A model generated the notes under the pieces. The model was not told the origin of the DNA. It saw nothing but the letters and a program-made list of their open reading frames with translations, and did no database searches. DNA of 64,000 bases from an uncultured Candidatus Saccharibacteria bacterium (GTDB lineage Bacteria; Patescibacteriota; Doudnabacteria; UBA920), in assembly GCA_964474825.1 (NCBI GenBank), contig CAYYWQ010000001.1, positions 65,420-129,419 of the forward strand, in the 5' to 3' direction. Below, piece by piece: positions 31,539 to 50,136 of this stretch. Both the position numbers and the translations under genes were made by a program. Position 1 is the first letter of the stretch. Each line of letters opens with the position of its first letter.

Positions 31539-31552
31539 AATTTGGCATTTTA

Positions 31553-32408: not shown

Positions 32409-32422
32409 ATTCAATCTATAAT

Positions 32423-32716
32423 ATGAACAAATACGAGCGGGTACCGGAACATATTATAGATTTGCATGGGTTTACCACGAAAGAGGCTGGGGAAATTTTG
32501 GACGAGCTTATAGAAAAAGGGGGGTATAGTCATGTTAGGGTTATTACGGGTAAAGGAACTTTTCGGGAGACTGGTCCGGTTATGAGGAGGTATGTGGAAA
32601 ATTATTTGGAGAATAGGGATATAACTTTCCAAGTAGCTAAACTTCAAAATGGTGGAGAGGGTGCGTTTGAGGTTTACCCCGCACCACTTCCCGGCAATAA
32701 ACGGAAGATAAAATAA
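32423..32716 (+). CDS. Smr-domain protein
   Basis: 97 aa; IDLHGFTTKEA…VRVITGKG Smr signature. Confidence 0.65.
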   Translation: MNKYERVPEHIIDLHGFTTKEAGEILDELIEKGGYSHVRVITGKGTFRETGPVMRRYVENYLENRDITFQVAKLQNGGEGAFEVYPAPLPGNKRKIK

Positions 32717-32762
32717 CTAAAGGCTATTTAAAATATTTTGTATTGTGTAAAATATAAAAAAA

Positions 32763-33116
32763 GTGGTTCTGGGGTTTTTAAAAATAATAGTTATGTCTAC
32801 AAAGCAGTCTACAATAGATTATTTGCTAGATCAGCTATCTGAAGTGGGAGATGTGCGTGCGCGAAAGATGTTTGGTGAGTACGCGCTTTATTGCGAAAAT
32901 AAAGTTGTAGCACTGGTTTGTGACGACGAGCTGTTTGTAAAAATTACCGAGCCAGGCAAGAAGTTTGCAGGCAAACATTATGAAGAAGGCTTTGCGTACA
33001 AGGGCGCTAAAGCTTCCATGCATATTTCCGGTGACTTGCTGGAAGACCGGAAATTTATTTGCAGTTTAATTACAATAACGGCGAAGGCTTTACCTGTTCC
33101 TAAGCCAAAAAAATAA
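32763..33116 (+). CDS. TfoX/Sxy N-terminal domain protein (competence-associated family)
   Basis: 117 aa (true start may be ATG at 32793); VRARKMFGEYALYCENKVVALVCDDELFVK matches TfoX_N. Confidence 0.6.
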   Translation: MVLGFLKIIVMSTKQSTIDYLLDQLSEVGDVRARKMFGEYALYCENKVVALVCDDELFVKITEPGKKFAGKHYEEGFAYKGAKASMHISGDLLEDRKFICSLITITAKALPVPKPKK

Positions 33117-33119
33117 TTT

Positions 33120-34379: not shown

Positions 34380-34451
34380 AATCGCTAAAACAGCGGTTTT
34401 TTGCTAGAATGATAATGCAGCGGGTCCAACAAACTAAATCTTTTTAAAGTT

Positions 34452-34832
34452 ATGGAAGGAATGTTTAATTTTGTAATTATTGTTTTTGTAATAGTCTCGG
34501 TTATTTTTCGTATAAAAAAAGCTCAGGAGAAATTGCAAAAGACAGGCGTACGTAGTGATGATCCTGTTGGTAAAAATTTTCAAAATGCATTACTGCAGGG
34601 TTTTTTAGGTCAGCCCCCAGAGCAAGTAGCCAAGTTTGCCGGCGGCAGTAAAGACATAGACAAGCTAGTAACGGTTTATGGGCCCGGCGCAATTTTAGGA
34701 ATAAACGAAGTTTCAGTGTTTCTGAAAATTAGTGAACAAGACGCACAGGAAATTTTAGACCAACTGCTAAGTTCAGGCAAAGCCATAACCACCACCAGCG
34801 CCAGCGGCAAAATCCGCTACAAGCTCATTTAA
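34452..34832 (+). CDS. Hypothetical membrane-anchored protein
   Basis: 126 aa; N-terminal TM. Confidence 0.4.
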   Translation: MEGMFNFVIIVFVIVSVIFRIKKAQEKLQKTGVRSDDPVGKNFQNALLQGFLGQPPEQVAKFAGGSKDIDKLVTVYGPGAILGINEVSVFLKISEQDAQEILDQLLSSGKAITTTSASGKIRYKLI

Positions 34833-34845
34833 AATTATCTCCCGA

Positions 34846-34920
34846 GTCCTTTTGCGTTAGCGCACTAGCTGAAAGTCCGCCGAAGCCTTGGCGAAGGTGG
34901 ATGCAGTAAAGCAAAAGGAC
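34846..34920 (+). other. Candidate small structured RNA / leader (10-bp closing stem GTCCTTTTGC…GCAAAAGGAC around a 55-nt GC-rich insert)
   Basis: Seen in 110-nt GC-enriched spacer before YwbE-like gene; no ORF. Confidence 0.25.
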
Positions 34921-34942
34921 CCGCAACAGGAAAGTTGAATTT

Positions 34943-35137
34943 ATGGCAGGACAAAATAGGGAAGATGTGAATATTGGGGCTACTGTGGGTATAGTTTTAA
35001 AGCAAGATCAGCCCACAGGCAAGCTTACGCGCGGCGTGGTTGCGGAACTTTTAACTAATTCACAGTTTCATCCGCATGGAATAAAAGTTAGGCTAGAAAG
35101 CGGCGAGGTCGGAAGAGTCCAAGCAATAATCAACTAA
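34943..35137 (+). CDS. YwbE-like small conserved protein (DUF2196)
   Basis: 64 aa; HPHGIKVRLESGEVGRV motif. Confidence 0.55.
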   Translation: MAGQNREDVNIGATVGIVLKQDQPTGKLTRGVVAELLTNSQFHPHGIKVRLESGEVGRVQAIIN

Positions 35138-35149
35138 AAAAATATAGTC

Positions 35150-35734
35150 ATGAATATCACCTCAGCAAAGTTTGTAAAGGGAGTTGTGGAAGAAGACGAG
35201 GTTTTGGACGACGGGGTGCCGCAGGTGGCTTTTGTCGGCAGGTCCAATGTGGGTAAGTCCAGCGTTATAAATTCTTTGGCAAACCAAAAAGGCCTGGCCA
35301 GGACCAGTTCTTTTCCGGGGCATACCCAGGAAATAAATATTTTTTTAATATCCGCTACCGGCGGGAATAAATTTTATTTGGTGGATTTGCCGGGCTACGG
35401 CTTTGCCAAAGCCTCAAAGGAAACCCAAGCCAGGCTGCAGCAGTTAATTTATTGGTACTTGCTGGATTCACATTATCTACAGGAAAAAATAGTTTTAATT
35501 ATAGACGCCGTGGTTGGCCCCACCGAAACAGACATGCAAATGCTCCATAGTTTAAAAGAGCAGCATAAGAATGTTGTTGTTGTGGCCAACAAAGTGGACA
35601 AGTTAAAAAAATCTGAATACAAAAAGCAGCTGCAAGAAATAAAAGATTCTTTGGGTGATAAATACAAAGTCATTCCTTATTCCGCGGAAAAGAAAATTGG
35701 CATAAACGAACTTTTAAACGAAATATTAAAATAG
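35150..35734 (+). CDS. engB: Ribosome-biogenesis GTPase YihA/EngB
   Basis: 194 aa; G1 GRSNVGKSS, G3 DLPGYG, G4 NKVDK. Confidence 0.85.
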   Translation: MNITSAKFVKGVVEEDEVLDDGVPQVAFVGRSNVGKSSVINSLANQKGLARTSSFPGHTQEINIFLISATGGNKFYLVDLPGYGFAKASKETQARLQQLIYWYLLDSHYLQEKIVLIIDAVVGPTETDMQMLHSLKEQHKNVVVVANKVDKLKKSEYKKQLQEIKDSLGDKYKVIPYSAEKKIGINELLNEILK

Positions 35735-35739
35735 ATTTT

Positions 35740-36216
35740 ATGAAAATTTCTTGGGGTAAACTTTTAGGGTTTATTGTTCTCTGCGAAGCAGTGGGAATTT
35801 TAGGGTCATTGTTTACAGTAGCGGCCATACCCAGTTGGTATGCTGCTTTAAATAAACCCTGGTTTAGTCCGCCCAATTGGCTGTTTGGCCCGGTGTGGAC
35901 CCTTCTTTATTTACTTATGGGAATTGCCGGCTACATGCTGTGGCAAAACAAGGGAACAGGTAAGGCCGCCAAGTTAGCATTAGTATTTTTCTTTATTCAA
36001 TTGGTTTTAAACGGAGTGTGGACGCCTCTGTTTTTTGGCGCGCATTTAATTGCTTGGGCTTTTGTGGAAATAGTCTTGATGTTGTTGTTTATTTTATTAA
36101 CCATCATCTTTTCTTTTAAAACCAAGCCCAAAGCCGCGATTTTACTGTTGCCTTATTTGTTTTGGGTCAGCTTTGCCAGTCTATTGAATTTTAGCCTGTG
36201 GCAATTGAATAAATAA
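35740..36216 (+). CDS. tspO: TspO/MBR tryptophan-rich sensory protein
   Basis: 158 aa; five TM helices, WYAALNKPWFSPPNWLFGPVWTLLY signature. Confidence 0.8.
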   Translation: MKISWGKLLGFIVLCEAVGILGSLFTVAAIPSWYAALNKPWFSPPNWLFGPVWTLLYLLMGIAGYMLWQNKGTGKAAKLALVFFFIQLVLNGVWTPLFFGAHLIAWAFVEIVLMLLFILLTIIFSFKTKPKAAILLLPYLFWVSFASLLNFSLWQLNK

Positions 36217-36224
36217 TCGCGATA

Positions 36225-36860
36225 ATGGATTTAACCGGAAATAAAAAGTTAATTTACACAGGAGCAGTTGTTTTAGTTGCTGTAATAATTTTTATTTTTT
36301 TTCGTAGCGGCGGTAGTCCCGTTGTAAAAAATTATCCATCATCGGGAATAGACATTATTGCCTTTGGTGACAGCTTGGTGTTTGGAACAGGGGCAACAAA
36401 GCCAGAAAATAATTTTGTTTCTGTTTTGTCTAAAAAACTTAATTTGCCTATTGTAAACCTTGGGGTGCCGGGCAATACTACGACAGACGGTTTAGCAAGA
36501 ATTAGCGACTTGGACAAGTATAATCCAAAAATAGTGCTGCTTCTTTTAGGCGGCAATGACCGTTTAAGGAGATTTCCGGAAGAGCAGTCAATTGCAAACC
36601 TAACAAGCATAATTGAAAATATTCAAAATAGGGGAGCCATTGTGGTTTTGCTTGGCGTTCGCGGAAACCTTTTGGGGAATAGTTTTGAAAAACAGCTTGA
36701 AAAGTTGGCAGAAAAATACCAAACTGCGTATGTGTCCGATGTTTTAGGCGGATTGTTCGGCAATTCCAAATATATGTTTGACACTATTCACCCAAACGAC
36801 GCGGGTAATGCCGTAATCGCTGACCGTATTTATCCTGTAATTTTGAAATTATTAAATTAA
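36225..36860 (+). CDS. SGNH/GDSL hydrolase
   Basis: 211 aa; N-terminal TM, GDSL block IIAFGDSLVFGTG, GGND block, DxxH at C-terminus. Confidence 0.75.
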   Translation: MDLTGNKKLIYTGAVVLVAVIIFIFFRSGGSPVVKNYPSSGIDIIAFGDSLVFGTGATKPENNFVSVLSKKLNLPIVNLGVPGNTTTDGLARISDLDKYNPKIVLLLLGGNDRLRRFPEEQSIANLTSIIENIQNRGAIVVLLGVRGNLLGNSFEKQLEKLAEKYQTAYVSDVLGGLFGNSKYMFDTIHPNDAGNAVIADRIYPVILKLLN

Positions 36861-36899
36861 CCGTGACGCCCAAGAGCCGCAGAACAGAGGAAAATAATG
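36853..36899 (+). promoter_or_regulatory. Conserved ~45-nt leader motif copy 1 (AAATTAAC…TGAcGCC…GAGCCGCA…AGAGGAAAAT-ATG)
   Basis: Near-identical blocks shared with 37758-37805; ends at start codon. Confidence 0.4.
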
Positions 36900-37268
36900 G
36901 ACAAGCAAATTGTTCGGGACAGTTTGGGTTGGGGTTTTGTGTTGTGGTTAATAGGTTATATTTTGGGAATAGTGTTTTTTAAGGCAGTGCCTCCAAGTTT
37001 GATTGGCTGGGTAATTACGCCAATAGGCATAATTTTTACTTTGCTCGTATTGTTTAAAAAGGTTAAAGGGATGGTGTTTAGTTATTACTTTTGTGTGGCA
37101 ATTGTTTGGACTTTAATTGCCGTAGTTTTGGATTATGTGTTTATTGTAAAAGCTTTTAAGCCGGCAGACGGTTATTATAAGCCGGATGTTTATTTGTATT
37201 ATGTTTTAACTTTTATTTTGCCATTACTTGTCGGTTGGCGTAAAAGTAAAACGTGCCGGTTAATTTAG
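36897..37268 (+). CDS. Small polytopic membrane protein
   Basis: 123 aa; 3-4 TM helices. Confidence 0.45.
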   Translation: MDKQIVRDSLGWGFVLWLIGYILGIVFFKAVPPSLIGWVITPIGIIFTLLVLFKKVKGMVFSYYFCVAIVWTLIAVVLDYVFIVKAFKPADGYYKPDVYLYYVLTFILPLLVGWRKSKTCRLI

Positions 37269-37289
37269 ATCAGGTAAAATAAAAAATCA

Positions 37290-37334
37290 GGAAGGGGAAG
37301 CAGAGGTCTGCGTCCCCTTCCCGTGACTACGTCC
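37290..37334 (-). terminator. Hairpin GGAAGGGGA-14nt-TCCCCTTCC with T-rich tail on minus strand, plus conserved CGTGACTACGTCC box (shared 3' element, copy 1)
   Basis: 9-bp stem; on minus strand followed by CTGATTTTTTATTTT; box overlaps stop codon of GC-rich gene. Confidence 0.55.
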
Positions 37335-37665
37335 GTTCTAGGAGTTTGTCCACCTCCATTTCGAGAATGAGGAAGTCACCCTCAACCTCGCCGCTTGAGC
37401 CGACCCAGCTGTCGTCGTAGAAAACTACGTGGGTTCCGCGGCAGTGGGCTACGAGCGTATCCCACTCAAGGCCGAGCTTAGCCCCGAGGTGGATGGAGGC
37501 TCGAATCATTGAAGGTTCGTTAGGCAGGGTTTCTAGGCGCCCGTCCCATCGCACCTCCTCATGCTCGACCCCTCTGGCAGCCAGATACGCGACCAACTGC
37601 GGCGAGTGGTCAAGAGGTGAAATACAACTGTGCCGCTCCGGCGGTTCGTAAACAAATATCTTCAT
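37327..37665 (-). CDS. Hypothetical protein in GC-rich island (start re-set to ATG with AAGGGAGG RBS)
   Basis: 112 aa (MKIFVYEPPERH…); RBS AAGGGAGGAAAAAACG-ATG; ~60% GC. Confidence 0.4.
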   Translation of the reverse strand: MKIFVYEPPERHSCISPLDHSPQLVAYLAARGVEHEEVRWDGRLETLPNEPSMIRASIHLGAKLGLEWDTLVAHCRGTHVVFYDDSWVGSSGEVEGDFLILEMEVDKLLERT

Positions 37666-37757
37666 ATCGTTTTTTCCTCCCTTTGAAAAACATTTTAGTA
37701 TACAAGAAATAGTAAAAAAAATCAAGAGCGCAATTAAAAATTGCTTAATAAGTGTAA

Positions 37758-37805
37758 AAAAATTAACATGATGGCCCAGAGCCGCAAAAAGGAGACAAAA
37801 CTATG
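37758..37805 (+). promoter_or_regulatory. Conserved ~45-nt leader motif copy 2
   Basis: AAATTAAC…TGAtGGCC…GAGCCGCA…AGGAGACAAAACT-ATG. Confidence 0.4.
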
Positions 37806-38207
37806 AACAAAGCCCTGGCCAATGTATTTTATATTTTTTCGGCCTTAGGTTTGGTGGACACCATTTATTTGTCTTACCACGCCATAAAAAAGACCGACGT
37901 TTCCTGTTGGTGGTTCCCAAAAGAGTGGTGCCAAAAAGTCCAATACAGCAAATTCAGCAAAACCTTGGGCATTCCTAATCCTTTTTTAGGGCTTTTGATT
38001 TACATAGTAATCATTGCCTTAACTTATTTAACTCTTGCCGGTTCAGCCTCGCCTTGGCTGGTTAAAGCCGTAATAGTTTTTGGTTTTGTTTTTTCAATGT
38101 ATTTTACCGCTATTCAGGCTTTTGTCTTGCGCGCCTTTTGCACGTGGTGCGTAATTTCCGCTGTAAATTTTACGGTTATGTTCCTGGCTTTGTTTCTGGT
38201 AAGGTAG
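37803..38207 (+). CDS. Vitamin K epoxide reductase (VKOR)-like membrane thiol oxidoreductase
   Basis: 134 aa; 4 TM helices; CxxC-type pair CWWFPKEWC and C-terminal CTWC. Confidence 0.55.
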   Translation: MNKALANVFYIFSALGLVDTIYLSYHAIKKTDVSCWWFPKEWCQKVQYSKFSKTLGIPNPFLGLLIYIVIIALTYLTLAGSASPWLVKAVIVFGFVFSMYFTAIQAFVLRAFCTWCVISAVNFTVMFLALFLVR

Positions 38208-38246
38208 CTTGAAAGTTGCTAAAATGACATAAAGCAACAACAAGCA

Positions 38247-39545
38247 ATGGAAATAAAAATAAATCACATAATCAAAAATTTCGATCACTTGGCCACTAAC
38301 CCTTTAAGGCGGCAGGCTTTGCTTATTGCCGAGGCAGGGCTTAAAGCCATAGACACTAAGGCGGCGGTGAGGAGGCTGGTTAAATATAATAACCAAAAAG
38401 AAATTTTAGAAGTTGCCGGAAAAAAATACGCGTTAATGGATTACGAGAGGGTAATGTGCGTAGGCTTTGGCAAAGCTGCGTTTGATGCTGTTTCGGAAAT
38501 TCAAGTTTCACTGGCAGACAAAATTAAATGCGGGTTTGTTATAGATTTAAAAGAGGGAAGTTTGGGAAATATTGTCTGCAAAGTAGGGACGCATCCGTAT
38601 CCTACCAAGGTAAATATAGAAGCCACAAAAGAATTAATGGCCATGCTTTCGAATTGCAGCGAAAAAGATTTAGTGCTTTGCGTGGTTTCAGGCGGCGGTA
38701 GCGCTCTACTTTGCAGTCCGCACGACATGAGCTGCGAGCAGGAAGTGGCAATAATTGCGGCCCTCACTGTTAAGGGCGCGACCATTCAGGAAATAAACAC
38801 CGTGCGCAAACACATTAGCACAATTAAAGGGGGGCAGTTAGCCAAGTTAATGTATCCGGCAACTGTCATTAGCCTTATTTTTTCAGATGTTCCGGGGGAT
38901 GACTTAAGTTTAATTGCCAGCGGCCCCACAGTTTTAGACAAAAGTAAAGTTCAGGACGCCGGAGATATTTTAAAAAAGTACGATGCCTTGGAAGCAGTAG
39001 GTATGCATTCGTGCAGGTTAATAGAAACACCAAAAGAACAAAAGTATTTTGAAAAAGTGCACAACATTTTGGCAGTTTCACCCAGGCAGGCACTGAGCGC
39101 TATGAAGGACGAGGCCGAGCAGATTGGTTTTGATGTGGAAATTTTTTCCCAAAATTTCCAAGGTCTTGCAAAAGAACTGGGGCCGCAAATTGTTTCCGCA
39201 AGCAAGTCGCGTATGGCACTCATTGGCGCGGGGGAAAGTACTGTCCAAATTACTGGTCACGGCGTTGGCGGCAGGAACCAGGAAATGGCTTTGGCCGCAA
39301 TACCTAATCTTTCCGAAAATCAAGTTCTGGTTTGTGTGGCAAGCGACGGCCACGACAACACCGACGCGGCCGGGGCTATTGCGGACAGCTCGTCATCTCT
39401 CAGGGCAAAGGCTTTGGGGTTGGATGTTAGTCACTATTTGGAGAATAACGACAGTTTCCATTTTTTTGAGCAACTGGGGGACCAATTAATAACCGGACAG
39501 ACCGGCGCCAATGTTTCGGATTTTTTTATTTGTTTAAAACAATAA
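38247..39545 (+). CDS. Glycerate 2-kinase (MOFRL family)
   Basis: 432 aa; DUF4147+MOFRL architecture, VVSGGGSALL motif. Confidence 0.8.
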   Translation: MEIKINHIIKNFDHLATNPLRRQALLIAEAGLKAIDTKAAVRRLVKYNNQKEILEVAGKKYALMDYERVMCVGFGKAAFDAVSEIQVSLADKIKCGFVIDLKEGSLGNIVCKVGTHPYPTKVNIEATKELMAMLSNCSEKDLVLCVVSGGGSALLCSPHDMSCEQEVAIIAALTVKGATIQEINTVRKHISTIKGGQLAKLMYPATVISLIFSDVPGDDLSLIASGPTVLDKSKVQDAGDILKKYDALEAVGMHSCRLIETPKEQKYFEKVHNILAVSPRQALSAMKDEAEQIGFDVEIFSQNFQGLAKELGPQIVSASKSRMALIGAGESTVQITGHGVGGRNQEMALAAIPNLSENQVLVCVASDGHDNTDAAGAIADSSSSLRAKALGLDVSHYLENNDSFHFFEQLGDQLITGQTGANVSDFFICLKQ

Positions 39546-39602: not shown

Positions 39603-42470
39603 ATGAAAAAGGTTTCAATAAAAAGGGTAAAGAAAAATAAAAAAGTCATAGGCCCAAAGGAAAAACTGCTTACGGGTTTAGGTGTAGGCGCAAGTTTAAT
39701 GGGAGGAATGGGCGCGGGTGTATCTAAGTCTCCCGCCCAAAAGCCTATTGTGGCAACAAATAAACAAGCCAAAGATTCGGTGGGCGGAAAAATTAAATCC
39801 GCTCTTACCAGTATTTTTGGCGTGCAGGAAGCCAAGGCTAATTTAGCGCAAACTATTTTTGGTAGCGGTGGAAGCTGGGACGGTGGTGGATTTATTGGGG
39901 GTTCAGATGGAGGTGGCGGAGGAGGTGGCGGAGGCTGGGGAGGAAATGATATACCCGGTTTTATGGGAGCAGACCAAAGCGGCTCTTCTATGGGAGGAAG
40001 GTTTTCCTCGATTGAAAATTCTCAGCGGTCACTGGACTATTGGAATAACGTTGCCGACCAAGCTCAAGCCCGTTCTGACGCAACAATACAAGCACAGGAT
40101 GCCGCAAATGCAACCACGCCCCAGCTTGCGGGTGATTCAGAGGAAGATAGAGAAGCTAATAATCAGAACACAACCGAAGTTGCTTCGGATGTTGTAAATA
40201 ATCTTTTGGACACCAGTCCTTACACATCTCCGTCCTTGCCTGAAAATCCGGATCCGGGAGCTGCTTCTGTTAATTCAAATATAGATTTTAATTTTAATAA
40301 TAATCCATATACCCCTTTTACGCCCGCACAAAACGACTACAATTCTAACACTGAGTATTTTAATAACGAAGGTATTGCCCAAAATTTTCCCACTCCTGAT
40401 CCTATTCCAGCTAATTCCAACAGTTACGATGTTTGGGATAATGTAACAGGAGGACAAAATGGCCCGTATGCCTCAACTTTAAATAATAATCCAAGCCCAA
40501 CAAGTAATGTGCCCGAAACAAGTAACTATATTGTCCCCGGTACGGAAGACATGTATGGTCCCGGCACAGGTATTGGACAAAATGGGGATGTGGTTAATCA
40601 AACAAATAATTCATACGATCCTTTTAGTGCAGTGGATGGCAGCGGGCAAATTAATCCAGCTGTCGTATTTACCCCAAGTGATGGTTTTTCCAAAGACGAT
40701 AGTACGGATTCGGACCAAACACGAACTTTTAACCTTGGGGAGCCTGGCAGCAGGTTAGGCTCCGGAGAAGAATTTGTTCCCACAGAGCTTCCCGGCAGAA
40801 CTTCCGGTATGTCCCAAAATACTGACGGCACTTTTAGTCCGGAAGGCAGCACTAACCGCTATTGGGTTAACGAGGAAACCGGTAATTATGAATTACTCGG
40901 GGCCGGTAATAATGTTTCCGCCCAAGTTACTGACCAAGTGGCTTACCATCCTTTTACCGCTAATGAGTTTTACGACGCCAGTCATGGGCAGCAATATGTA
41001 ACAACTCAGCCGGGTTTTACCCCAAATGTAGGGGTTGAAACGGGAACGCCGGAAGAAATTTTAGCACGGTCCGGTCAAAATTTAAATTTTCAAACTTCCG
41101 GAGAGCAGGATTTAATATCCGCAGCCGGAAATAACCAGGAAGGCACAAATGGAGCCCAAAGCCAGCAGTCTTCTGGGGAAGTTACAGGCAACGCTCAAAA
41201 TCCATATGCAAATACTTTTGCCAACCAGCAAGGGAGTTTAGAGTACCAAAACGCCACCCCCAAAAGTTCTGATCTCCAAACCGATACAGGATTAGCCAAT
41301 CAGTCCGTTTCAACGGAAAACAGCTTTAAACCATCTGAAAGAAGCGCGGAACAAATTGGCACCCCATTAATTACCGAAGAATTCCAACAAAAGCCGCTGT
41401 CACCAGAAGAAGTGTTGGCTAATGGCCCAAACTTCCGCGAATCCGATTTAAGCAACCCCATTTTCCTGCCCGTTAGCAGAATAGACGGAACCAGTGTTCC
41501 TAATGTCCTGCTTGGCAGCGACAGCAGTATTTATAGCCAAGACCCCACGACCGGTGAACTAAGCCGGGTCGGAAATATTACCGACTTAGAAAAAGCCGGC
41601 TGGAAACCCGGAGATGCTTTTCCAGACCTCCCAAGCTCCCAAAGTTTGGCTTCTACTGCCAAAGAAACAGGTAAAAAAGTTACCGATGCTGTAAACAAAG
41701 CCAGTGAAAAACTTCAAGCGAAGGAAACAGCGTTAACTAAAAAAGTTATAGGGTTTTTCCATAAGGACGACAGCGGTAATACTTCTACTCAGTCAACAGG
41801 GAAAGCTACCGATGAAATGTCTGCCACCGCGGATGCTAAAACGGCCGATGGTACTCCTTTGTGGAAGCTAGACAACGGCGTCTATACGGATTTTGACGGT
41901 AACCTTTACACCCAAACCCCTAAAGGTAGGTTCGAGGAAGCCGGTATTACCGTTGACCAATTAGATCCGAACACTTTGCCTTCTAACCAAGACCGGACAA
42001 TTACAGGCCCTAAAGGACAAACCCTGCAAAGTTATGGTAATGGTACTTACACTGATGCCAACGGAAATATTTATTCTTTAAATGAAAATGGCAAGCCAGT
42101 TAGCACCGGAATTTCAACAGACGTACAAGGGCAAAATTTTTATTCCGCAGCCGCGGGTTTGACTCTTGACGAAACTACCGTCAAAGGCCGTATTGACAAT
42201 GCCCTGTCAAAACCCGGTAGGCTAGGTATGGCGGCTATTACCATAGCAAACCCCTTGGCGGGAATTGCCCTACAGGGGTATTCCACTTTAAATGCCGGGC
42301 AGCAAAAGAGTTTTAACCAGTGGCTGGCCCGCCCTGAAGACGGCACTTTAAATTATACTTACAGGGATCCGGCTACCGGCCAGGATGTTACGGTCAGGAC
42401 GACAAAATCGGACCTTAGGGCTGCCATTGATTTTGTTAACAGCTTTGGAATGAATGTGGTAAAGCCGTAA
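39603..42470 (+). CDS. Giant low-complexity surface protein (paralogous N-terminal module shared with 43543 gene)
   Basis: 955 aa; basic N-terminus MKKVSIKRVKKNKK…GLGVGASLMGG (YSIRK-like), Gly-rich tract, Asn/Ser/Thr/Gln-rich body. Confidence 0.6.
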   Translation: MKKVSIKRVKKNKKVIGPKEKLLTGLGVGASLMGGMGAGVSKSPAQKPIVATNKQAKDSVGGKIKSALTSIFGVQEAKANLAQTIFGSGGSWDGGGFIGGSDGGGGGGGGGWGGNDIPGFMGADQSGSSMGGRFSSIENSQRSLDYWNNVADQAQARSDATIQAQDAANATTPQLAGDSEEDREANNQNTTEVASDVVNNLLDTSPYTSPSLPENPDPGAASVNSNIDFNFNNNPYTPFTPAQNDYNSNTEYFNNEGIAQNFPTPDPIPANSNSYDVWDNVTGGQNGPYASTLNNNPSPTSNVPETSNYIVPGTEDMYGPGTGIGQNGDVVNQTNNSYDPFSAVDGSGQINPAVVFTPSDGFSKDDSTDSDQTRTFNLGEPGSRLGSGEEFVPTELPGRTSGMSQNTDGTFSPEGSTNRYWVNEETGNYELLGAGNNVSAQVTDQVAYHPFTANEFYDASHGQQYVTTQPGFTPNVGVETGTPEEILARSGQNLNFQTSGEQDLISAAGNNQEGTNGAQSQQSSGEVTGNAQNPYANTFANQQGSLEYQNATPKSSDLQTDTGLANQSVSTENSFKPSERSAEQIGTPLITEEFQQKPLSPEEVLANGPNFRESDLSNPIFLPVSRIDGTSVPNVLLGSDSSIYSQDPTTGELSRVGNITDLEKAGWKPGDAFPDLPSSQSLASTAKETGKKVTDAVNKASEKLQAKETALTKKVIGFFHKDDSGNTSTQSTGKATDEMSATADAKTADGTPLWKLDNGVYTDFDGNLYTQTPKGRFEEAGITVDQLDPNTLPSNQDRTITGPKGQTLQSYGNGTYTDANGNIYSLNENGKPVSTGISTDVQGQNFYSAAAGLTLDETTVKGRIDNALSKPGRLGMAAITIANPLAGIALQGYSTLNAGQQKSFNQWLARPEDGTLNYTYRDPATGQDVTVRTTKSDLRAAIDFVNSFGMNVVKP

Positions 42471-42544
42471 ATTAAATTTAGTTTTTTTGTGTTTTTGTGG
42501 TATGATAAATAGACAAAAGTGACTATTAAAATCAAAAATAAAGG

Positions 42545-43537
42545 ATGAATATTGTTTTTTGCGAGACCGAAGACTGGCAGCAGGAATATTTGAAACAAAA
42601 ACTTACTGAACATAAGTTAATTTTTGAAAAAAGCACAAAAATAAGCCCCAATCCGGAAGCGGAAATTATTTCTAATTTTGTCGCGTCTCCAGTTACGGCG
42701 GAAACATTAAATGATTTCCCAAAATTAAAGTATGTTACAACCCGAAGCACGGGTTTTGACCATATAGACCTTAAAGCCTGCCAAGAGCGGGGTATTTTAG
42801 TTAGCAATGTGCCGACTTATGGGGAAAACACTGTAGCGGAATTTGCTTTTGCATTGCTGTTGGCGCTTTCCCGCAAAATTTACCAGGGTGTTAAGCAAGT
42901 TAGGGAAAAGGGCTTGTTCGCAACTGAAAACTTGCGGGGGTTTGATTTGCAGGGTAGGACAATTGGCGTAGTTGGAGCCGGGCATATTGGCATGCATGTT
43001 ATTAACATGGCCAAAGGTTTTGACATGAAAGTGCTGGCTTACGACCCGCACCCAAACGAAGAATTGGCAAAAAAAATTGGCTACGAATATGCCAGCTTGG
43101 AAGATTTGCTAAAAACTTCGGACGTAATAACCCTGCATGTACCGTATTTGCCCGCCACGCATCACTTAATAAATTCGCAAAATATTAATTTGTGTAAACA
43201 GGGCTGCGTAATTATTAATACCGCGCGCGGCGGGTTAATAGAAACCGCGGCATTAATTAGCGGCTTAAAATCAGGGAGAGTGGCGGCCGCGGGCTTAGAC
43301 GTTTTGGAAGAAGAAGGTTTTATAAAAGACGAACTTGATTTACTATACAGCGGACATCCTAACGAAGACCAGTTAAAAACTGCTTTGGCCGACCATGAAT
43401 TAATGCAAATGGAAAATGTGTTAATTACACCGCATAACGCTTTTAACAGCCATGAGGCAATGCTGAGGATTTTAGACACCACAGTGGAAAATATTATTTC
43501 TTTCGCGTCCGGAAAGCCGGTTAATTTAGTAAAGTAA
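42545..43537 (+). CDS. D-isomer-specific 2-hydroxyacid dehydrogenase
   Basis: 330 aa; NAD-binding GRTIGVVGAGHIG, catalytic R/E/H pattern. Confidence 0.85.
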   Translation: MNIVFCETEDWQQEYLKQKLTEHKLIFEKSTKISPNPEAEIISNFVASPVTAETLNDFPKLKYVTTRSTGFDHIDLKACQERGILVSNVPTYGENTVAEFAFALLLALSRKIYQGVKQVREKGLFATENLRGFDLQGRTIGVVGAGHIGMHVINMAKGFDMKVLAYDPHPNEELAKKIGYEYASLEDLLKTSDVITLHVPYLPATHHLINSQNINLCKQGCVIINTARGGLIETAALISGLKSGRVAAAGLDVLEEEGFIKDELDLLYSGHPNEDQLKTALADHELMQMENVLITPHNAFNSHEAMLRILDTTVENIISFASGKPVNLVK

Positions 43538-43542
43538 ATTTT

Positions 43543-46500
43543 ATGGATAAAAAATCCCCACCAAACCATACCGGACACCATCCGCCCCACCAAAAAAGCA
43601 GTCATAGCGGACATCACGGGCACCATCATTCACATAATAACAACGAAGCCATGGAACAGGTTAAAATTAGCAGGGTAAAAAGGAATAAAAAGAAAATTAC
43701 TTCCAAAGAAAAGGTTTTGGCCGGTTTGGGCTTGGGCGCGAGTTTAATTGGCGGAGCAGGGGCGGTCGCGCCAAAACCCAGCCAGACCCAAATTGTGCGC
43801 AGCGACGACAGCCAGAAAACCGGAGCAAGCGGAAAAATTAAAGAAACTATTAAAAATATTTTTGGTGTAGGAAAAGCTAAAGCCGCGGAGTTGACCCCGG
43901 AGCAGCAAGCGGCTTTGTCAATATTGTCTTCAGGTTTAAATCCTGACGGAACGCCGGCTAGTCAAGAGGACTTGGCAGCGGCAAATCAAATTTATTACGG
44001 TCAGGTTTACAATAATCAATCCAATGTGGCCGGCGCTAATGCCGGAGTCCAAAACCCCGCAGATCCTGACGCGGGGAATAACGACGAGCCGCCTCCTGCA
44101 AATGTAGGAAACGACACGCAAACCCCTCCCGCAACCGGCGTTGATTTGACCGGCCTTACAACGGTTAAGGACATTAACGAATCCCGTACAGGAACGGTAA
44201 ACGTAAACGGGGTACCAACGCAGCTTTCGGTTATTGGCAGTGACGGGAGAATTTTTGACAATGAAGGACATGAGGTGACCGGTAATTTTTCCGCCACAGA
44301 ATTAGACGCCATACGCGCGGCTTTTAATAATGACAGTAATTTAGCTAACACCGGGGGCGGCGGAACAGACGGTGGCGGCTCAGGAGCCGGCACAGGAAAT
44401 GACGACCAAGGCGCTGCGACAACTCGGATAGACACCACGGGCGGACGCAGCGTACACCAGGTTTATCAAAACAACCAATGGGTAGATGCGCCGGAAGTTG
44501 GCGACACTTTTATAGACAGTGAAGGTAAAACACACAGAAACGTTGGTTCCGCAAATGGTTCCCCATATTGGATAGTGGAAGGCCAGGAAACCGGCGACGG
44601 CACACAAGAAGGCGAAGTTCGTTCCACACAAGAAGGCGGATTTTTGGCCTATCATAATGGAGACTGGACACAACCCCGCCCCGGCGACAAGTTTACGGAC
44701 GGCAGCGGACTTATTTATACATTTAGCCAAACCTTAACAGCACCGGGAAGTTGGGTGCTTGATGACGGTCAGCATACTACTGATGGTCAAGGTATTCCTT
44801 TGGTTTCCGTTGGCGGAGTTTGGCAGCCGGTTGGCCAAGAAAATAATAATCAAACACCGCCTGGCGCGGCTGTAATACCGGCGGGCCTTACCGTGGAAGA
44901 TGACATTAATAATTCTAAAAAGGGCACAGTTAGTATTAATGGCGAGTCAACGGTAATAAATGTTACGTTGGATCCTTATGGTAGCTATCATGTTTATAAT
45001 GACAAAGGAGAAGAAATAACCAGCACCATTGCGAATGTGAATGATTTAGGCCGGGCGTTTTTTGCGACCGACGACAACGGGGGCGACGAAACAGCCCATG
45101 AAGGGGATGTCAAATCCGAGGGAGGACTTGACTATATTTACCATAATAACCAGTGGGTCTTAAAAGACGGGAATGTAAAAATTGAGAACGGCAGGCACTA
45201 CCATACCGAAGGAGGCGTGTGGGTGGAAGACCAGGCAGAAGGCGAACAGCCCCACGAAGGTGAAAGCCGCAGCGCCGATGGCGGCATTGTGGTCTATCAT
45301 ATTGATTCAAACGGTAACGGCCAATGGACAGCTCCCCGCTCCGGCGACAAGTTCACGGACGGCAGTGGTTTTACTTATACCTTTGAAAAAGTTTTAACTG
45401 AGCCGGGCAGTTGGGTAATGGATAATGGCCAGCACACAACCAATGCAGCCGGGGAACAATTGGAATCACAAGGTGGCAAGTGGGTGGTAACTGGAACAGT
45501 TGTTTTGCCCTCAGCGGTTACAATCCCAACGGGCTTAACTTTAAAGGACGACGTTAATAATTCCAAGCAAGGCACAGTCAGTATAAGAGGTGTTAATACA
45601 GTAGTAAATGTTACAAGAGATTCGGACGGGAATTACCATGTTTACAATGAAAAAGGTGAAGAAATTACGTCCACAATTACTAACTTGGAGGAATTGGGGA
45701 ATGCCTTCTTCCGTTCTGGTGACGGCGGCGGAGCGTCTGGGATAAATTTAACCGGCCTTAGGACCACTCCTGACATAAATAGGTCCCGCACCGGCGTAAT
45801 TAAAATAAACGGAGTCAATACCACGCTGTCTATGTTGAGCGATGGCAGGATTTTTGACGACAGGGGTCAGGAAATAACAGACACTTTTTCTGAGAGTGAC
45901 CTCGCGGCAATCCGAGCTGCTTTTGCCGACGACGCTAACTTAGCTTCTGTGGCCAGGGAAGGGGACGTGAGGGACGACGCGGACGGTTTCCATTATACTT
46001 ACCACGGCACGCAATGGGTCTTAAACGACGGCCAGGAGCGGACCCGGAATACTTTTAAAGAAAGAAGTTTAGGCGGCGCTTGGGTGTTAGTAGACGGCCA
46101 GTCCGCAACCCGTGACGGGTTTAGGTATATTTCCCGCGGCGGAAGTTTTGTATTAGTAGACGGCCAGACAAAAACTGAAAACGGGAAGGGTTACCATACC
46201 GCAGGCGGGGTTTGGGTGGAAGACGGAGCGGCCGGTGTTTCCCCTGAACAGGCAAAAATAAATGCCGCTGGCGCGTCACTTTCTCGCGGGTCTTTAACTC
46301 CTGAGGCAATACAGCTTGGAATAAAAGACATGGCCGAGGCAAATAGTATTTATTATACGTTTTACGCGCAGCAGCAAAAAAGTGAAATGGTAACCAGCGG
46401 GGAGTCGCCGGTAGACGCCAATGGCAATGTAAGAACTGCTGCGGGTTGGAAGCAAATGGGTGACGGTATTTATTACAATACCAAAACAGGAATAACATCC

Positions 46501-49218
46501 AACCGCGACGGCAGTATACAGTCCCGAACTTCCGACGGTTTTGGCAACACCAGGAACCAAGCCTTTTTAAATGGGTTTACAGCTACCCCGCTTGCGAATT
46601 TAAGCCAGTACGGAGTTCCTTATACAGACAAGCATGGCAACCCTATTGGCGGAAAATCCAGTTACAACCCTGACTATTATGTGGACCAGGATACTGCCAC
46701 GGCTTTGGCTAAGGCATTGGGCCTTGAGGCAGTGTTAGTTAGCCCGGGCGGTGGCATGTTTAACATGCCTCCTGAATGGGGCATAAGGCTGCCTAACGGG
46801 GATATAATGTCAGCGGGCTTAACAGCCCACATGTATTTGAATAATCCCGTATCGGCAGACGAGATAGTCCGGCAAATGGTTAAGGCAGCGGGTGGAACTT
46901 TTACGGGAGCTGATTTTGGATCGGGCCGGTTAAATAACGTCAGCTCTACAGGCGCAGGGTCCACAGGATCGGGAACTACAGCTGTGTTACCAACGGGGCA
47001 AACTTTTAGTTTTATAAATGTCACCACAGGCAACAGTTCCATATTTAAAGTCGGCGACACTTGGAGAATGACTGTAAAGGGAGCACCGGATACAGATGTT
47101 TTTGTTGTTACTAGTAAAAATGGAGGCGCATCGGAAACAGTTAAAATAGGAAGGACAGATAAAGTAACGGGCGAATTTACCGTTAGTAAAACAATTGGCG
47201 TGGGCGACGTGGGTAATTGGTCGGAAACTTGGAAAGTCGGGGACGTAACAGTGGCGCAATTTAGCTTTACAGTAACCGCGGCAGCGACCGCTTTGCCTAA
47301 CCCGGCGGAAGTTTCTTTTACTTTTGTAAATAAAACCCATCCCGGCGCTTCGGTGTTTACGGTAGGGGACGAATTTGAAATTACCTTTACCTCTACGCCC
47401 AATACCAAAGTTTACGTAACTACTAACCATAATGGTTTTATTTCCAGCGAAGAAAGAGGAATCACGGGAGTAACTGACGGTAAGTTTGTGACAAGGGGAG
47501 TTATGAAAACCGAGCACATTGGCGATTGGTCGGAAACCTGGAAAGTGGGGGATAAAATAATTTCCTCCTTTACCTTTAAAGTCCAGGCCTCTCCCAGCGC
47601 GGCTGCCGCAGCTTTTACCCTGTCTTCTTCAACAGTGGCTTTGGTGCCCGGGATGAGCTTTAATGTTTCTATCCAAAATGCCGGGACAGAACAATTTACA
47701 GTTACTTCTTCTAACCCAAACGCGGTTAAGGCAACACTTAACGGCGGATCCATTGTTTTAACAGCCGGATCTTTTCCGGGCAATGCCGTAATTACCGTGC
47801 ATCCTAATTCTGCCGGCACCGCTACGGACAAAGACAAAACAATTACGGTTACTGTGGCGACCCCCGGAACAGTGGTTGTTTCCGGGACAGTCAGTTCTTT
47901 GACCCTGTCAAAAACTACTTCCTCTGTTGCTGTTGGATCAACCGACACGGTTATTGCTTTGGTAGCCATGACAACCGGCGCCAACAATGGTAATGTTTCC
48001 GTTACTTCTTCTGACCCGGCAAAAGTTACGGCAAGTGTTAATACCGCAACCGGTGTTATTACCTTGCGAGGAGTAACCGCCGGGACCGCAACAATTACTG
48101 TGCATCCGTTGAACGCCACCGATGCTTCCAAAGACAAAGTTATTGTTGTAACCGTAGCGGGGACAGTTTCTACTGCTCCGGTGGTTTCCCAAATTACCCC
48201 AAATTCCGCAGCGCGGGGAGAACACGGGACATTTGTTATTACCGGACAGAATTTGCAAAATGCCACCCTTTCGTTTGTTAATTCCACAGGCTTAACTCTT
48301 TCCAATGTCCAGGTAAATGCCTCCGGTACACAAATTTCCGCTTCGTTAAGCATCGCAAATACCGCGACTTTGGGACTGAATATTTTAAGGGTTACTACAG
48401 CAACAGGAAGTGCGGATACTACTTTTACGGTGAACGCTGCCGCTGCTTCGACTGCCGATAAAACATCCACCGGAACCGGAGCTAAGGATGACTTGGTTGT
48501 AACCACCACAGGGGGCAGTACCGGAACTCAAGGTACCGGAAGCGGCGGCACAGTAACCTATACTTCTTCCGGGGGAGGAGGAATTGTTGCCGGGGTTACG
48601 CCTTTCTTTACCACCATAAACCCGCCGAATGCAGCGGTGGGACAAAGCTACGGCGCTTACATTCAGGCCGTGAGCAACTACCCAATGACTTTTTCTATTA
48701 TTAATGGCACATTGCCTCCGGGTTTGAGCATGAATGACGCGGGTTATATTAGCGGTACTCCAATGGCTACGGGCAGTTTTACTTTTACCGTTAAAGCGGC
48801 AACTAACCAGGGAGTTATTTCGACTAAACAATTTATTCTTGTTGTGGGCAATGCGGGCAGTGTGTCTTTCTCTTCACAATACGGCGGTGCAGTAGCCGGG
48901 GTCCAAACTTTCCAGGGCCTGCAAATGCCTTCAGGGTATTCGGCTTCCACGGGCGGGTTAAAAATGCCCGCGGGTTATCCGGCTTCCGAGGGAGGATCCG
49001 GCCTTCAAATGCCCGAAGATGTTGGCAGGGACACAGAAAAAAGCGGTAAAAGTTACACAGTTAAAAAAGGCGACACACTTTGGAAGATTGCCAAAGCAAC
49101 TACGGGGGATGGGCGCAATTGGCGTAAAATTTTAGCTGAAAACCCAAAGAGTTTAAGCAGTCCCGGTAATACCAAGACTTTAAAAGTTGGGGCAGTACTA
49201 AGTATCCCGCAAATTTAA
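43543..49218 (+). CDS. Giant surface protein with His-rich N-terminus, internal tandem repeats, Big_2/Ig-like domains and C-terminal LysM
   Basis: 1891 aa; alt start ATG 43651 gives MEQVKISRVKRNKKK…GLGLGASLIGG matching paralog; four ~180-aa repeats (TGLTxxDDINNSKxGTVSINGxxTVxNVT…); BIG2-like FTVTSSNPNAVKATLNGG; C-terminal LysM YTVKKGDTLWKIAK…VGAVLSIP. Confidence 0.7.
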   Translation: MDKKSPPNHTGHHPPHQKSSHSGHHGHHHSHNNNEAMEQVKISRVKRNKKKITSKEKVLAGLGLGASLIGGAGAVAPKPSQTQIVRSDDSQKTGASGKIKETIKNIFGVGKAKAAELTPEQQAALSILSSGLNPDGTPASQEDLAAANQIYYGQVYNNQSNVAGANAGVQNPADPDAGNNDEPPPANVGNDTQTPPATGVDLTGLTTVKDINESRTGTVNVNGVPTQLSVIGSDGRIFDNEGHEVTGNFSATELDAIRAAFNNDSNLANTGGGGTDGGGSGAGTGNDDQGAATTRIDTTGGRSVHQVYQNNQWVDAPEVGDTFIDSEGKTHRNVGSANGSPYWIVEGQETGDGTQEGEVRSTQEGGFLAYHNGDWTQPRPGDKFTDGSGLIYTFSQTLTAPGSWVLDDGQHTTDGQGIPLVSVGGVWQPVGQENNNQTPPGAAVIPAGLTVEDDINNSKKGTVSINGESTVINVTLDPYGSYHVYNDKGEEITSTIANVNDLGRAFFATDDNGGDETAHEGDVKSEGGLDYIYHNNQWVLKDGNVKIENGRHYHTEGGVWVEDQAEGEQPHEGESRSADGGIVVYHIDSNGNGQWTAPRSGDKFTDGSGFTYTFEKVLTEPGSWVMDNGQHTTNAAGEQLESQGGKWVVTGTVVLPSAVTIPTGLTLKDDVNNSKQGTVSIRGVNTVVNVTRDSDGNYHVYNEKGEEITSTITNLEELGNAFFRSGDGGGASGINLTGLRTTPDINRSRTGVIKINGVNTTLSMLSDGRIFDDRGQEITDTFSESDLAAIRAAFADDANLASVAREGDVRDDADGFHYTYHGTQWVLNDGQERTRNTFKERSLGGAWVLVDGQSATRDGFRYISRGGSFVLVDGQTKTENGKGYHTAGGVWVEDGAAGVSPEQAKINAAGASLSRGSLTPEAIQLGIKDMAEANSIYYTFYAQQQKSEMVTSGESPVDANGNVRTAAGWKQMGDGIYYNTKTGITSNRDGSIQSRTSDGFGNTRNQAFLNGFTATPLANLSQYGVPYTDKHGNPIGGKSSYNPDYYVDQDTATALAKALGLEAVLVSPGGGMFNMPPEWGIRLPNGDIMSAGLTAHMYLNNPVSADEIVRQMVKAAGGTFTGADFGSGRLNNVSSTGAGSTGSGTTAVLPTGQTFSFINVTTGNSSIFKVGDTWRMTVKGAPDTDVFVVTSKNGGASETVKIGRTDKVTGEFTVSKTIGVGDVGNWSETWKVGDVTVAQFSFTVTAAATALPNPAEVSFTFVNKTHPGASVFTVGDEFEITFTSTPNTKVYVTTNHNGFISSEERGITGVTDGKFVTRGVMKTEHIGDWSETWKVGDKIISSFTFKVQASPSAAAAAFTLSSSTVALVPGMSFNVSIQNAGTEQFTVTSSNPNAVKATLNGGSIVLTAGSFPGNAVITVHPNSAGTATDKDKTITVTVATPGTVVVSGTVSSLTLSKTTSSVAVGSTDTVIALVAMTTGANNGNVSVTSSDPAKVTASVNTATGVITLRGVTAGTATITVHPLNATDASKDKVIVVTVAGTVSTAPVVSQITPNSAARGEHGTFVITGQNLQNATLSFVNSTGLTLSNVQVNASGTQISASLSIANTATLGLNILRVTTATGSADTTFTVNAAAASTADKTSTGTGAKDDLVVTTTGGSTGTQGTGSGGTVTYTSSGGGGIVAGVTPFFTTINPPNAAVGQSYGAYIQAVSNYPMTFSIINGTLPPGLSMNDAGYISGTPMATGSFTFTVKAATNQGVISTKQFILVVGNAGSVSFSSQYGGAVAGVQTFQGLQMPSGYSASTGGLKMPAGYPASEGGSGLQMPEDVGRDTEKSGKSYTVKKGDTLWKIAKATTGDGRNWRKILAENPKSLSSPGNTKTLKVGAVLSIPQI

Positions 49219-49317: not shown

Positions 49318-50136
49318 ATGAATCACACACATCATCATGCAGTAAAAGATCCGGAGGCCGGCACAACCGCGGAATATTGCGCGGAATGCGAAAGAGATTC
49401 AGGCTCCTCTTACTTTGTTCCCGGGGCGGTTTTGGTTGGCGCAATATTAATTTCCCTGAGCATTTTCTTTAGCGGAAAAATGGTGGTTGGCAAGCTGGAA
49501 AACAGCGTGGCCGCAGCGCCGAGCCAACCCGTTGCTCTAGGACAACCCCAGCAAGCCGCGCCTCAACAGCCCACAGGCCCGGTAAATGTCGCGGCGCGCA
49601 GCGACCAGCCAACTTTGGGAAACAAAAGCGCTAAAGTTACTATTGTAGAATTTGCTGATTTCCAATGCCCGTTCTGCAAAAAATATTTCGATGAAACCTT
49701 TGCCCAAATTAAGTCTAAGTATATAGAAACCGGCAAGGTTAAGTATGTTTACCGACACTATCCATTGCCTTTCCATGTTAATGCCCAAGTTGCCGCTGTG
49801 GCCGCCGAGTGCGCGAACCAGCAGGGGAAATTTTGGGAATATCACGACGTGTTATTTAAAAACGGCCAGGCCGACGGCACCGGTTTAGACAAGGCGAGTT
49901 TGGAAAAATACGCCTCTGACATGGGTTTAAATAACGGCACTTTGGGTTTTGGTAAAAATAAATTTAACCAGTGTGTGGACGGTAACGCGACTTTGTCTAT
50001 AGTGCAGGCTGACAATACCGAAGGCAGCAAAGACGGCGTAAGCGGTACCCCGAGCTTCTTTATTAACGGTCAACTTTTAGTAGGCGCCCAGCCTTACAGT
50101 GCGTTTGAACAAGCTATAGAAGCGGCGCTTAAGTAA
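49318..50136 (+). CDS. DsbA-family thiol:disulfide oxidoreductase, membrane-anchored, His-rich N-terminus
   Basis: 272 aa; MNHTHHHAV…, one TM, thioredoxin CPFC motif (FADFQCPFCKKYF). Confidence 0.8.
   Translation: MNHTHHHAVKDPEAGTTAEYCAECERDSGSSYFVPGAVLVGAILISLSIFFSGKMVVGKLENSVAAAPSQPVALGQPQQAAPQQPTGPVNVAARSDQPTLGNKSAKVTIVEFADFQCPFCKKYFDETFAQIKSKYIETGKVKYVYRHYPLPFHVNAQVAAVAAECANQQGKFWEYHDVLFKNGQADGTGLDKASLEKYASDMGLNNGTLGFGKNKFNQCVDGNATLSIVQADNTEGSKDGVSGTPSFFINGQLLVGAQPYSAFEQAIEAALK

Follow-up and report, generated by a model that had tools for sequence, protein, structure and literature searches.

Two giant proteins at one locus share an N-terminal module

We analysed a 64-kb stretch of DNA (the window) from an uncultured bacterium of the Doudnabacteria lineage (contig CAYYWQ010000001.1, positions 65,420 to 129,419), in which two genes encoding proteins of 955 and 1891 residues flank a single gene for a 330-residue protein; all were examined as open reading frames (ORFs). 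The gene for the 955-residue protein (39603..42470, + strand) specifies a body rich in Gly, Asn, Ser and Thr, without a single Cys, that ends in a conserved domain of its own. The C-terminal 130 residues were found again in P0120 and P0107, among the sequences collected below, and Pfam and NCBIfam scans at E<=1 returned no family match for this protein. The larger gene (43543..49218, +) occupies a syntenic position in other genomes. Its product terminates in a LysM peptidoglycan-binding domain at residues 1838-1889 (49054..49209, +; Pfam PF01476, E 8.3e-9, 35.7 bits against a cut-off of 20.9), which was also the sole match when the two proteins were searched against the sequences in the PDB. 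Orthologues of 1203-2291 residues carry the same terminal LysM domain.

A preliminary description of the window had proposed that these two proteins share a conserved N-terminal module, and BLASTP bears this out. Residues 1-79 of the 955-residue protein align with residues 37-114 of the 1891-residue protein, with 42 of 79 positions identical (53%), 55 of 79 positive and an E value of 1e-18. The next-best segment between the two has an E value of 0.048, so only their N-termini are related. A profile of the module run against a six-frame translation of the window found exactly these two copies (E 1e-46 and 1e-45; next match 0.7) and no further one in the 64 kb, and the module recurs in other genomes. 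Because the two copies use different codons at 19 of their 42 identical residues, the conservation lies at the level of the protein; the same count rules out conservation of the DNA or RNA, or a recent gene conversion.

In the 955-residue protein the module begins, without any upstream extension, with a basic n-region at residues 1-21 (MKKVSIKRVKKNKKVIGPKEK; 39603..39665, +; net charge +9), in which I6, R8, K13, K14 and K21 are invariant across 19 aligned sequences. A Gly-rich, weakly hydrophobic core follows at residues 22-40 (LLTGLGVGASLMGGMGAGV; 39666..39722, +) and is the best hydrophobic 19-mer of the protein, with a Kyte-Doolittle (KD) value of 1.41 and an additive insertion energy of about +3.7. 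Alignments and position-specific composition define an amphipathic stretch at residues 62-79 (39786..39839, +), which reads GKIKSALTSIFG, then VQE, then A-K-A. The A-K-A (39831-39839) is where conservation and with it the leader ends, and it is our proposed processing site.

The module of the 1891-residue protein is preceded by a His/Lys/Pro-rich extension at residues 1-36 (MDKKSPPNHTGHHPPHQKSSHSGHHGHHHSHNNNEA, opening with MDKKSPPNHTGHHPPHQ...; 43543..43650, +), seen as an open frame with similar extensions in relatives. Alignments place the conserved Met and basic motif at residues 37-57 (MEQVKISRVKRNKKKITSKEK; 43651..43713, +). Residues 58-76 form the Gly-rich core (VLAGLGLGASLIGGAGAVA; 43714..43770, +; KD 1.78, additive insertion energy about +2.4), and residues 97-114 (43831..43884, +) read GKIKETIKNIFG, then VGK, then A-K-A at the leader end. 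Both alanines of this A-K-A (43876-43884), A112 and A114, are invariant in alignment A5, and the sequence from +1 onward, directly after them, reads AELTPEQQAALSILSSGLNPDGTPASQEDLAAANQIYYGQ....

The preliminary description had the second copy start at the internal ATG at 43651. This position stands as the start of the module; as the start of the protein it probably does not, for the 36 upstream codons from ATG 43543 are probably translated, given that the frame and motif of the extension are conserved and that one relative, P0001, lacks the internal Met altogether. Residues 1-36 would then probably be cytoplasmic. A motif resembling a Shine-Dalgarno (SD) site (GGAG, GAGG or AGGA at -20 to -4) precedes only 9 of 57 window ORFs and the lineage seems to make little use of such sites, so the DNA does not itself discriminate between the two start codons.

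The module defines a leader family specific to Doudnabacteria

A pattern scan covering one genome per prokaryotic species located 13 loci in 12 other genomes, all of them metagenome-assembled genomes (MAGs). Eight are labelled Candidatus Doudnabacteria, and the rest Patescibacteria, unclassified 'bacterium' or, through automatic labelling, Saccharibacteria. Further copies lie in those loci, in tandem or flanking the same neighbours, and two of the loci (L004 and L010) belong to one genome; two or three leader copies per genome are therefore usual, as in the window.

A word-indexed protein search gave only fragments of at most 184 residues, and full-length relatives were reached by an exhaustive HMMER profile search of 1.84 billion cluster representatives. 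At a threshold of E<=1e-3 this search returned 136 proteins, 118 of them at E<=1e-10. The match to the module begins at residue 1-43 in every one of the 136 representatives, and in none is it internal. When 139 collected sequences were re-scored with a 19-sequence profile, 138 were upheld; the weakest match, P0139, failed and is probably spurious, so that the search yielded about 135 relatives. Nearly all organism-named loci are MAGs of Doudnabacteria or Patescibacteria, and a divergent member with a source name came from Doudnabacteria once more. The leader family is specific to Doudnabacteria, within the Candidate Phyla Radiation (CPR, or Patescibacteria).

A phage origin was rejected, since the collection of viral contigs contained no relative. 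We found no paper containing the motif KIKRVKR and, judging by titles and abstracts, none of three papers in which both Doudnabacteria and signal peptides are mentioned seems to report a leader of this kind.

The leader has five parts and ends in a nearly invariant A-x-A

The whole leader spans 80-115 residues, with a median of 79 from the conserved Met to the A-x-A, and consists of an optional extension, a basic motif, a Gly-rich core, a polar spacer and an amphipathic stretch that ends in A-x-A. The extension is 8-42 residues long and has a high content of Lys, His and Pro. Of the representatives, 75 have it and 48 do not, and it often opens with M-[PST]-K-[TSI]-K-x-P-P-G-G-G-H (the MxKxKxPPGGG-His type). 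The basic motif that follows is near-invariant, M[DE]KVKIKRVKRNKK, with the consensus M-[DE]-K-V-K-I-K-R-V-K-R-N-K-K-K-x-T-T-K-E-K, and the residues ahead of the core carry a net charge of +7 to +17. An S-I-K/R likeness to YSIRK signals, to which the preliminary description had drawn attention, is confined to the two window copies, the family consensus being V-K-I-K-R-V-K-R-N-K-K.

The core, LAGLGVGSTLLGGAGAV, has 17-19 residues (consensus [IVL]LAGLGVG[SA]TL[LM]GG[AG]GAV), with a median of 6 Gly per 19 residues and a mean KD value of about 1.55 (range 1.3-1.8), and most family members have no other anchor-like hydrophobic segment. Some 20 polar residues, frequently including TQFVRTQ, form a spacer that leads to the amphipathic stretch, K-[IVL]-K-x-x-[LF]-x-x-[IT]-F-G-[VI]-x-x-A-x-A, whose hydrophobic moment of 1.55 compares with a median of 0.8 for shuffled sequences. 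In the 1891-residue protein AlphaFold2 predicts a helix at residues 95-107, with low confidence.

The preliminary description had missed the feature that closes the leader, an A-x-A that is all but invariant and lies some 40 residues past the core, at the very point where conservation ends. The motif occurs in 122 of the 130 leaders that cover the region, with A-x-G in two more; of the other six, P0119 lacks the motif altogether, and five are truncated or frameshifted or do not include the start of the module. In the 122 leaders the residue at -2 is free (K in 79, Q in 13, H in 10, E in 6 and others). Gly stands at -7 in 106 and Gly or Pro somewhere within -8 to -4 in 118. At +1 we found D (42), A (27), S (16) and E (9) most often and Pro never. 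Information content drops from 1.2-4.3 bits before the A-x-A to about 0.5 bits after it.

The leader precedes large, wall-associated proteins

Collecting proteins with the same N-terminus yielded mostly large extracellular wall-binding proteins. The representatives range from fragments to 2480 residues, 71 having at least 900 and 24 at least 1500; the median in a crude comparison set of 57 window ORFs is about 210. Beyond the A-x-A the proteins have 0.04% Cys and much Gly (11%), Thr (11%) and Ser (10%; 9.7% before rounding) as well as Ala and Asn. LysM domains were found in 52 of 138 members with a local hidden Markov model (HMM) and in 19 of 25 large members with Pfam, and not in the 955-residue protein. 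Large members also carry Ig-like and other domains, namely He_PIG (7 of 25), Ig_SIBA, PKD, Big_3, Big_13, Bact_surface_Ig-like and BACON. Anchoring by LPXTG and sortase was rejected, with a single regular-expression match among 102 proteins, a hydrophobic C-terminal tail in none of them, and LysM instead. Serine-rich repeats are likewise absent, no 100-residue window holding more than 31 Ser.

The cargo proteins, with these domains and compositions, are extracytoplasmic and wall-associated, and the core of the leader is their only plausible export signal. The signal peptides or anchors of other exported proteins encoded in the same loci are ordinary and far more hydrophobic; the leader therefore marks a particular class of proteins and not every large secreted protein. 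The suggestion in the preliminary description of a lineage-specific sorting or export module on very large extracellular proteins is supported: the module is always N-terminal, is confined to Doudnabacteria-type genomes and heads Cys-free cargo with LysM or Ig-like domains and lengths of up to 2480 residues.

The C-terminal domain of the 955-residue protein (residues ~826-955, window 42100-42470) is common to its paralogues, such as that at L002:9974-13711. It includes a second Gly-rich, mildly hydrophobic segment, LGMAAITIANPLAGIALQG, which in L002 reads GGFLITGLSVVNPAAGAVI.

A model for export and processing, and its alternatives

We are highly confident that the shared N-terminus is an export leader in the general sense. 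As to how it works, our reading of the sequence patterns is that it is probably, though by no means securely, an extended Sec-type cleavable sorting leader for large wall-associated proteins that is cut at the distal A-x-A. The strongly basic part, formed by M[DE]KVKIKRVKRNKK and, where present, the Lys/His-rich extension, would stay in the cytoplasm according to the positive-inside rule. Its conserved motif would be read by a specific targeting or translocation factor, which is probable because the sequence is conserved beyond its charge. The Gly-rich and marginally hydrophobic core, LAGLGVGSTLLGGAGAV, would engage the Sec translocon as the h-region of a signal peptide without becoming a stable anchor. 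The next ~40 residues would be translocated, and the amphipathic helix K[IV]KxxLxxIF would come to rest at the outer face of the membrane, where it would present G-[VI]-x-x-A-x-A, a (-3,-1) signature of type I signal peptidase with a helix breaker at -7/-5. Cutting at the A-x-A would free the mature protein, which may then be held on the wall by a C-terminal LysM domain (1891-residue type) or by other domains (955-residue type).

The leader has the basic n-region expected of a generic Sec and signal peptidase I substrate, and it has the hydrophobic h-region, though a marginal and Gly-rich one. The A-x-A shows every local feature of a cleavage site, and a weaker candidate, xGA|V, is present at the end of the core. 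Several points count against this reading. Canonical signal peptidase I sites sit 3-7 residues after the core and the A-x-A lies ~38-45 residues past it; being too far from the core, it would have to be brought into place by an unproven positioning of the helix at the membrane surface, and we know of no signal peptidase I substrate described with such a geometry, set by an interfacial amphipathic helix. AlphaFold2 gave the leader just two short helices at low confidence (predicted local distance difference test, pLDDT, about 50-65). The conserved neighbours, which are metabolic, DsbA-like and pseudopilin genes, include no dedicated partner gene, and no gene resembling a dedicated translocase or peptidase was seen among the Pfam-scanned window ORFs and the conserved neighbours, the neighbouring ORFs having been scanned in part. 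Finally, the comparison of insertion energies, about +3.3 for the core against -6.4 to +0.3 for genuine anchors in the window, was made with approximate Hessa-scale values.

An alternative that we consider unlikely, but the most serious of those weighed here, is that the leader is an uncleaved N-terminal signal anchor. The proteins would then be type II membrane proteins with the N-terminus inside and the C-terminus outside, and the A-x-A would be structural. The basic tail would bind a cytoplasmic partner or acidic lipids, the core would be a Gly-zipper transmembrane helix that may self-associate, and the conserved stretch beyond it would be a juxtamembrane amphipathic helix. This reading accommodates the n-region, which at up to 57 residues is very long and, being highly conserved, is more like a cytoplasmic domain; it also suits the small-xxx-small patterns of the core, fit for helix-helix packing, and the distance of the A-x-A from the core, too great for canonical signal peptidase I. 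The core itself speaks against it. Its 19 residues include 6 Gly, and at an insertion energy of about +3.3, where real anchors of the same genome have negative values, it resembles a signal peptide more than an anchor. The strict Ala at -3 and -1, the free -2, the Gly or Pro at -7/-5, the absence of Pro at +1 and the sudden loss of conservation are hard to explain structurally, and retention on the wall is already supplied by LysM.

A conventional signal peptide cut right after the core, for example at GGAGA|V, would leave the conserved 40 residues on the mature protein, either as a region that assists transport, like the SecA2-contacted segment of GspB, or as a propeptide that another protease would take off in a later cut at the A-x-A. 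Many cores do end in small residues (AGA, IGA, VGA, GAA), then V or A, with Pro at +3, and accessory Sec substrates have a specifically recognised region adjoining the signal peptide, going by the title of Bensing 2012, a reference listed in PMC5578698. We nonetheless regard a proximal cut as improbable: the site is far less conserved than the distal A-x-A, several leaders have Q, M or P at -1 (GGVSQV, GGASMV, AAAPF), and the invariant A-x-A at the boundary between leader and body is left unexplained.

It is very improbable that the Gly-rich core is instead the substrate of a rhomboid-type or other intramembrane protease that frees the ectodomain. The core is rich in the helix breakers G, A and S, and known rhomboid substrates are rich in helix-breaking small residues; but no rhomboid gene was found among the Pfam-scanned window ORFs and conserved neighbours, within the partial scan of neighbouring ORFs given above, and the spacer, the amphipathic helix and the A-x-A are left without a role.

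The leader resembles known extended signal peptides without belonging to their families

The preliminary description had placed the module close to the YSIRK and KxYKxGKxW signals. We scanned Pfam, expected to hold PF04650 and PF13018, and NCBIfam, expected to hold TIGR01168, TIGR03715 and TIGR04088. At E<=1 neither library gave a signal-family match to either window leader or either full-length protein, and 19 leaders searched at E<=10 gave none bar one chance-level match to TIGR04224 at E 0.16. Membership in the YSIRK, KxYKxGKxW, ESPR and SipW-cognate families was accordingly rejected. What survives of the resemblance is the layout, in which a basic motif lies upstream of a core rich in small residues. 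True but divergent homology to YSIRK/GXXS or KxYKxGKxW, with a 12-residue insertion, is the least credible of the alternatives: an invariant Ile and Arg in the basic motif do precede an LGVG(S/A)-type core like the KLGVGIAS of SpA, and YSIRK proteins, too, include giant cargo and LysM, as in Ebh and SpA (PMC5962339), but there is no YSIRK, KxYKxGKxW, ESPR or SipW-cognate match at the thresholds just given, the spacing differs, the Ser of 'SIK' is not conserved, LPXTG and serine-rich repeats are missing and the phylum is another.

The family is a real one of extended leader peptides, without a matching model in the Pfam and NCBIfam libraries scanned, and it is probably an analogue of the YSIRK and KxYKxGKxW signals in its working rather than a member of either family. 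In YSIRK/GXXS signals (PF04650/TIGR01168), as here, a basic motif with invariant Ile and Arg stands N-terminal of a Gly/Ser/Ala-rich core on abundant or very large wall-associated proteins, such as giant Ebh and LysM-bearing SpA, and the motif is needed for septal secretion (PMC5962339). In both, what is conserved goes beyond charge, which points to a specific sorting step added to Sec. The differences are equally clear. The leader has VKIKRVKRNKK in place of [YF]SIRK (consensus to the core VKIKRVKRNKKKxTTKEKxLAGLGVGS), and its invariant I and R precede the first core Gly by 19 and 17 residues, where the spacing in SpA is 6. It extends over 80-115 residues compared with about 36-50, and has its A-x-A ~40 residues past the core. 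Its cargo is bound by LysM, whereas YSIRK cargo is typically, though not universally, anchored by LPXTG and sortase, and its host belongs to a CPR lineage.

The KxYKxGKxW leaders (TIGR03715) of the accessory Sec system (SecA2/SecY2) offer a second parallel. The leader of GspB, for instance, has about 90 residues. Both types are very long, with an extended basic n-region that holds a conserved motif, a Gly-containing and weakly hydrophobic core, very large cargo and a conserved segment adjoining the signal peptide. According to PMC5578698, Gly residues in the core of GspB route export to SecA2/SecY2 (there citing Bensing 2007), and the segment adjoining the signal peptide is contacted by SecA2. 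In the Doudnabacteria leader, by contrast, the conserved 40 residues come after the core and end in A-x-A, and the cargo is without serine-rich repeats. No secA2 or secY2 gene was found among the Pfam-scanned window ORFs and conserved neighbours, again with the neighbouring ORFs scanned in part.

Two further systems are more distant. ESPR (PF13018), on type V secreted proteins of diderm bacteria, is likewise a conserved N-terminal extension on very large surface proteins. Its place is ahead of an otherwise normal signal peptide that is cut at a proximal site, in the autotransporter and two-partner secretion (TPS) systems of the outer membrane, whereas beta-barrel and TPS domains are absent from the Doudnabacteria proteins, which carry LysM; neither the window leaders nor the 19 leaders matched PF13018 in Pfam. 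Gram-positive pre-pro leaders and SipW-cognate signals (TasA type, TIGR04088) have a two-part N-terminal region that is removed from the mature protein, as we propose here, and TasA-type signal peptides have a Gly-rich core of the kind KK...LG..A..LGLALVGGG. The leaders have no NCBIfam match to TIGR04088. Propeptides, moreover, are usually family-specific folding aids, and here one segment of ~40 residues precedes many unrelated bodies.

We raise, as a speculation that we consider doubtful, a hitherto unknown route dedicated to exporting or sorting the giant surface proteins of a CPR lineage, in which a factor would read KIKRVKRNKK together with the Gly-rich core of low hydrophobicity and an A-x-A ~40 residues beyond the core would be processed. 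The prevailing view is that CPR bacteria live attached to other cells, and giant surface proteins are likely organs of contact. The leader provides a sequence tag for the surface proteome of Doudnabacteria in metagenomes, useful in annotating CPR surfaces, and is a candidate new family for Pfam or NCBIfam. It is also a testable case of convergence, beside YSIRK, KxYKxGKxW and ESPR, in which very large wall proteins have come to use signal peptides that are extended and carry a motif. Should the distal A-x-A prove to be a true cleavage site, the accepted range of signal peptidase substrates would widen.

Genomic neighbourhood

The leader genes sit in a kept gene order, which may simply reflect relatedness: a glycerate kinase gene (DUF4147 + MOFRL), in some genomes a 955-type gene, a D-2-hydroxyacid dehydrogenase gene, the giant LysM-type gene and a gene for a DsbA-like thioredoxin, with a pseudopilin cluster upstream of the arrangement. 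Within 10 kb on either side the conserved neighbours are pseudopilins, an ATP-grasp protein, glycerate kinase, the 2-hydroxyacid dehydrogenase and the DsbA-like protein. In the window the glycerate kinase gene (38247-39545, +) lies just upstream, as it does in 7 loci. The gene for the D-isomer 2-hydroxyacid dehydrogenase (42545-43537, +) stops 5 bp before the gene for the 1891-residue protein, and this adjacency is seen in 8 loci. Directly downstream of the giant gene is that for the DsbA-like thioredoxin (49318-50136, +), conserved in 7 loci, with counterparts at L003:15711-16532, L012:16837-17685 and L008:8032-8829. Its product starts with a His-rich cytoplasmic tail (MNHTHHHAV..., MTEHEHHPGEHRHVH...) that echoes the His-rich extension of the leader. 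A small membrane protein encoded at 37803-38207 (+) looks VKOR/DsbB-like by eye; the leader-bearing proteins are, in contrast, almost free of Cys.

Three pseudopilin-like genes (23436-27417, +) lie in a cluster 12-16 kb upstream of the leader genes, and 9 loci have this cluster conserved on the upstream side of the giant gene. The largest product described, a pseudopilin-like protein of 605 residues, combines an N-terminal methylation motif with CarboxypepD_reg domains. Additional pilin genes are located at 31553-32023 (+) and 61288-61830 (+). The region ~29100-38250, with a PIF1-like helicase gene (29392-31449), a pilin gene and EngB, TspO-like and SGNH genes, separates the ATP-grasp and glycerate kinase genes, which are adjacent or close in related loci; this suggests an insertion or rearrangement specific to the genome of the window.

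Elsewhere in the window, a protein of 1545 residues (56498-61135, +) has an ordinary hydrophobic N-terminal segment instead of the leader. It has a Cys-rich N-terminus and carries TSP1_ADAMTS (thrombospondin type 1, E 5e-12), fn3 and BACON-like domains, and part of it has a relative in L011. TSP1 is an adhesion domain of eukaryotic type and is unexpected in a CPR bacterium. At the other end, positions 20-10368 (-) hold what appears from its domains to be a cluster for de novo purine biosynthesis, comprising AIR synthase, AIR carboxylase, GAR synthetase, formyl transferase, an amidophosphoribosyltransferase-like protein and an FGAM-synthase-like protein of 990 residues; the de novo purine pathway is often missing from CPR genomes.

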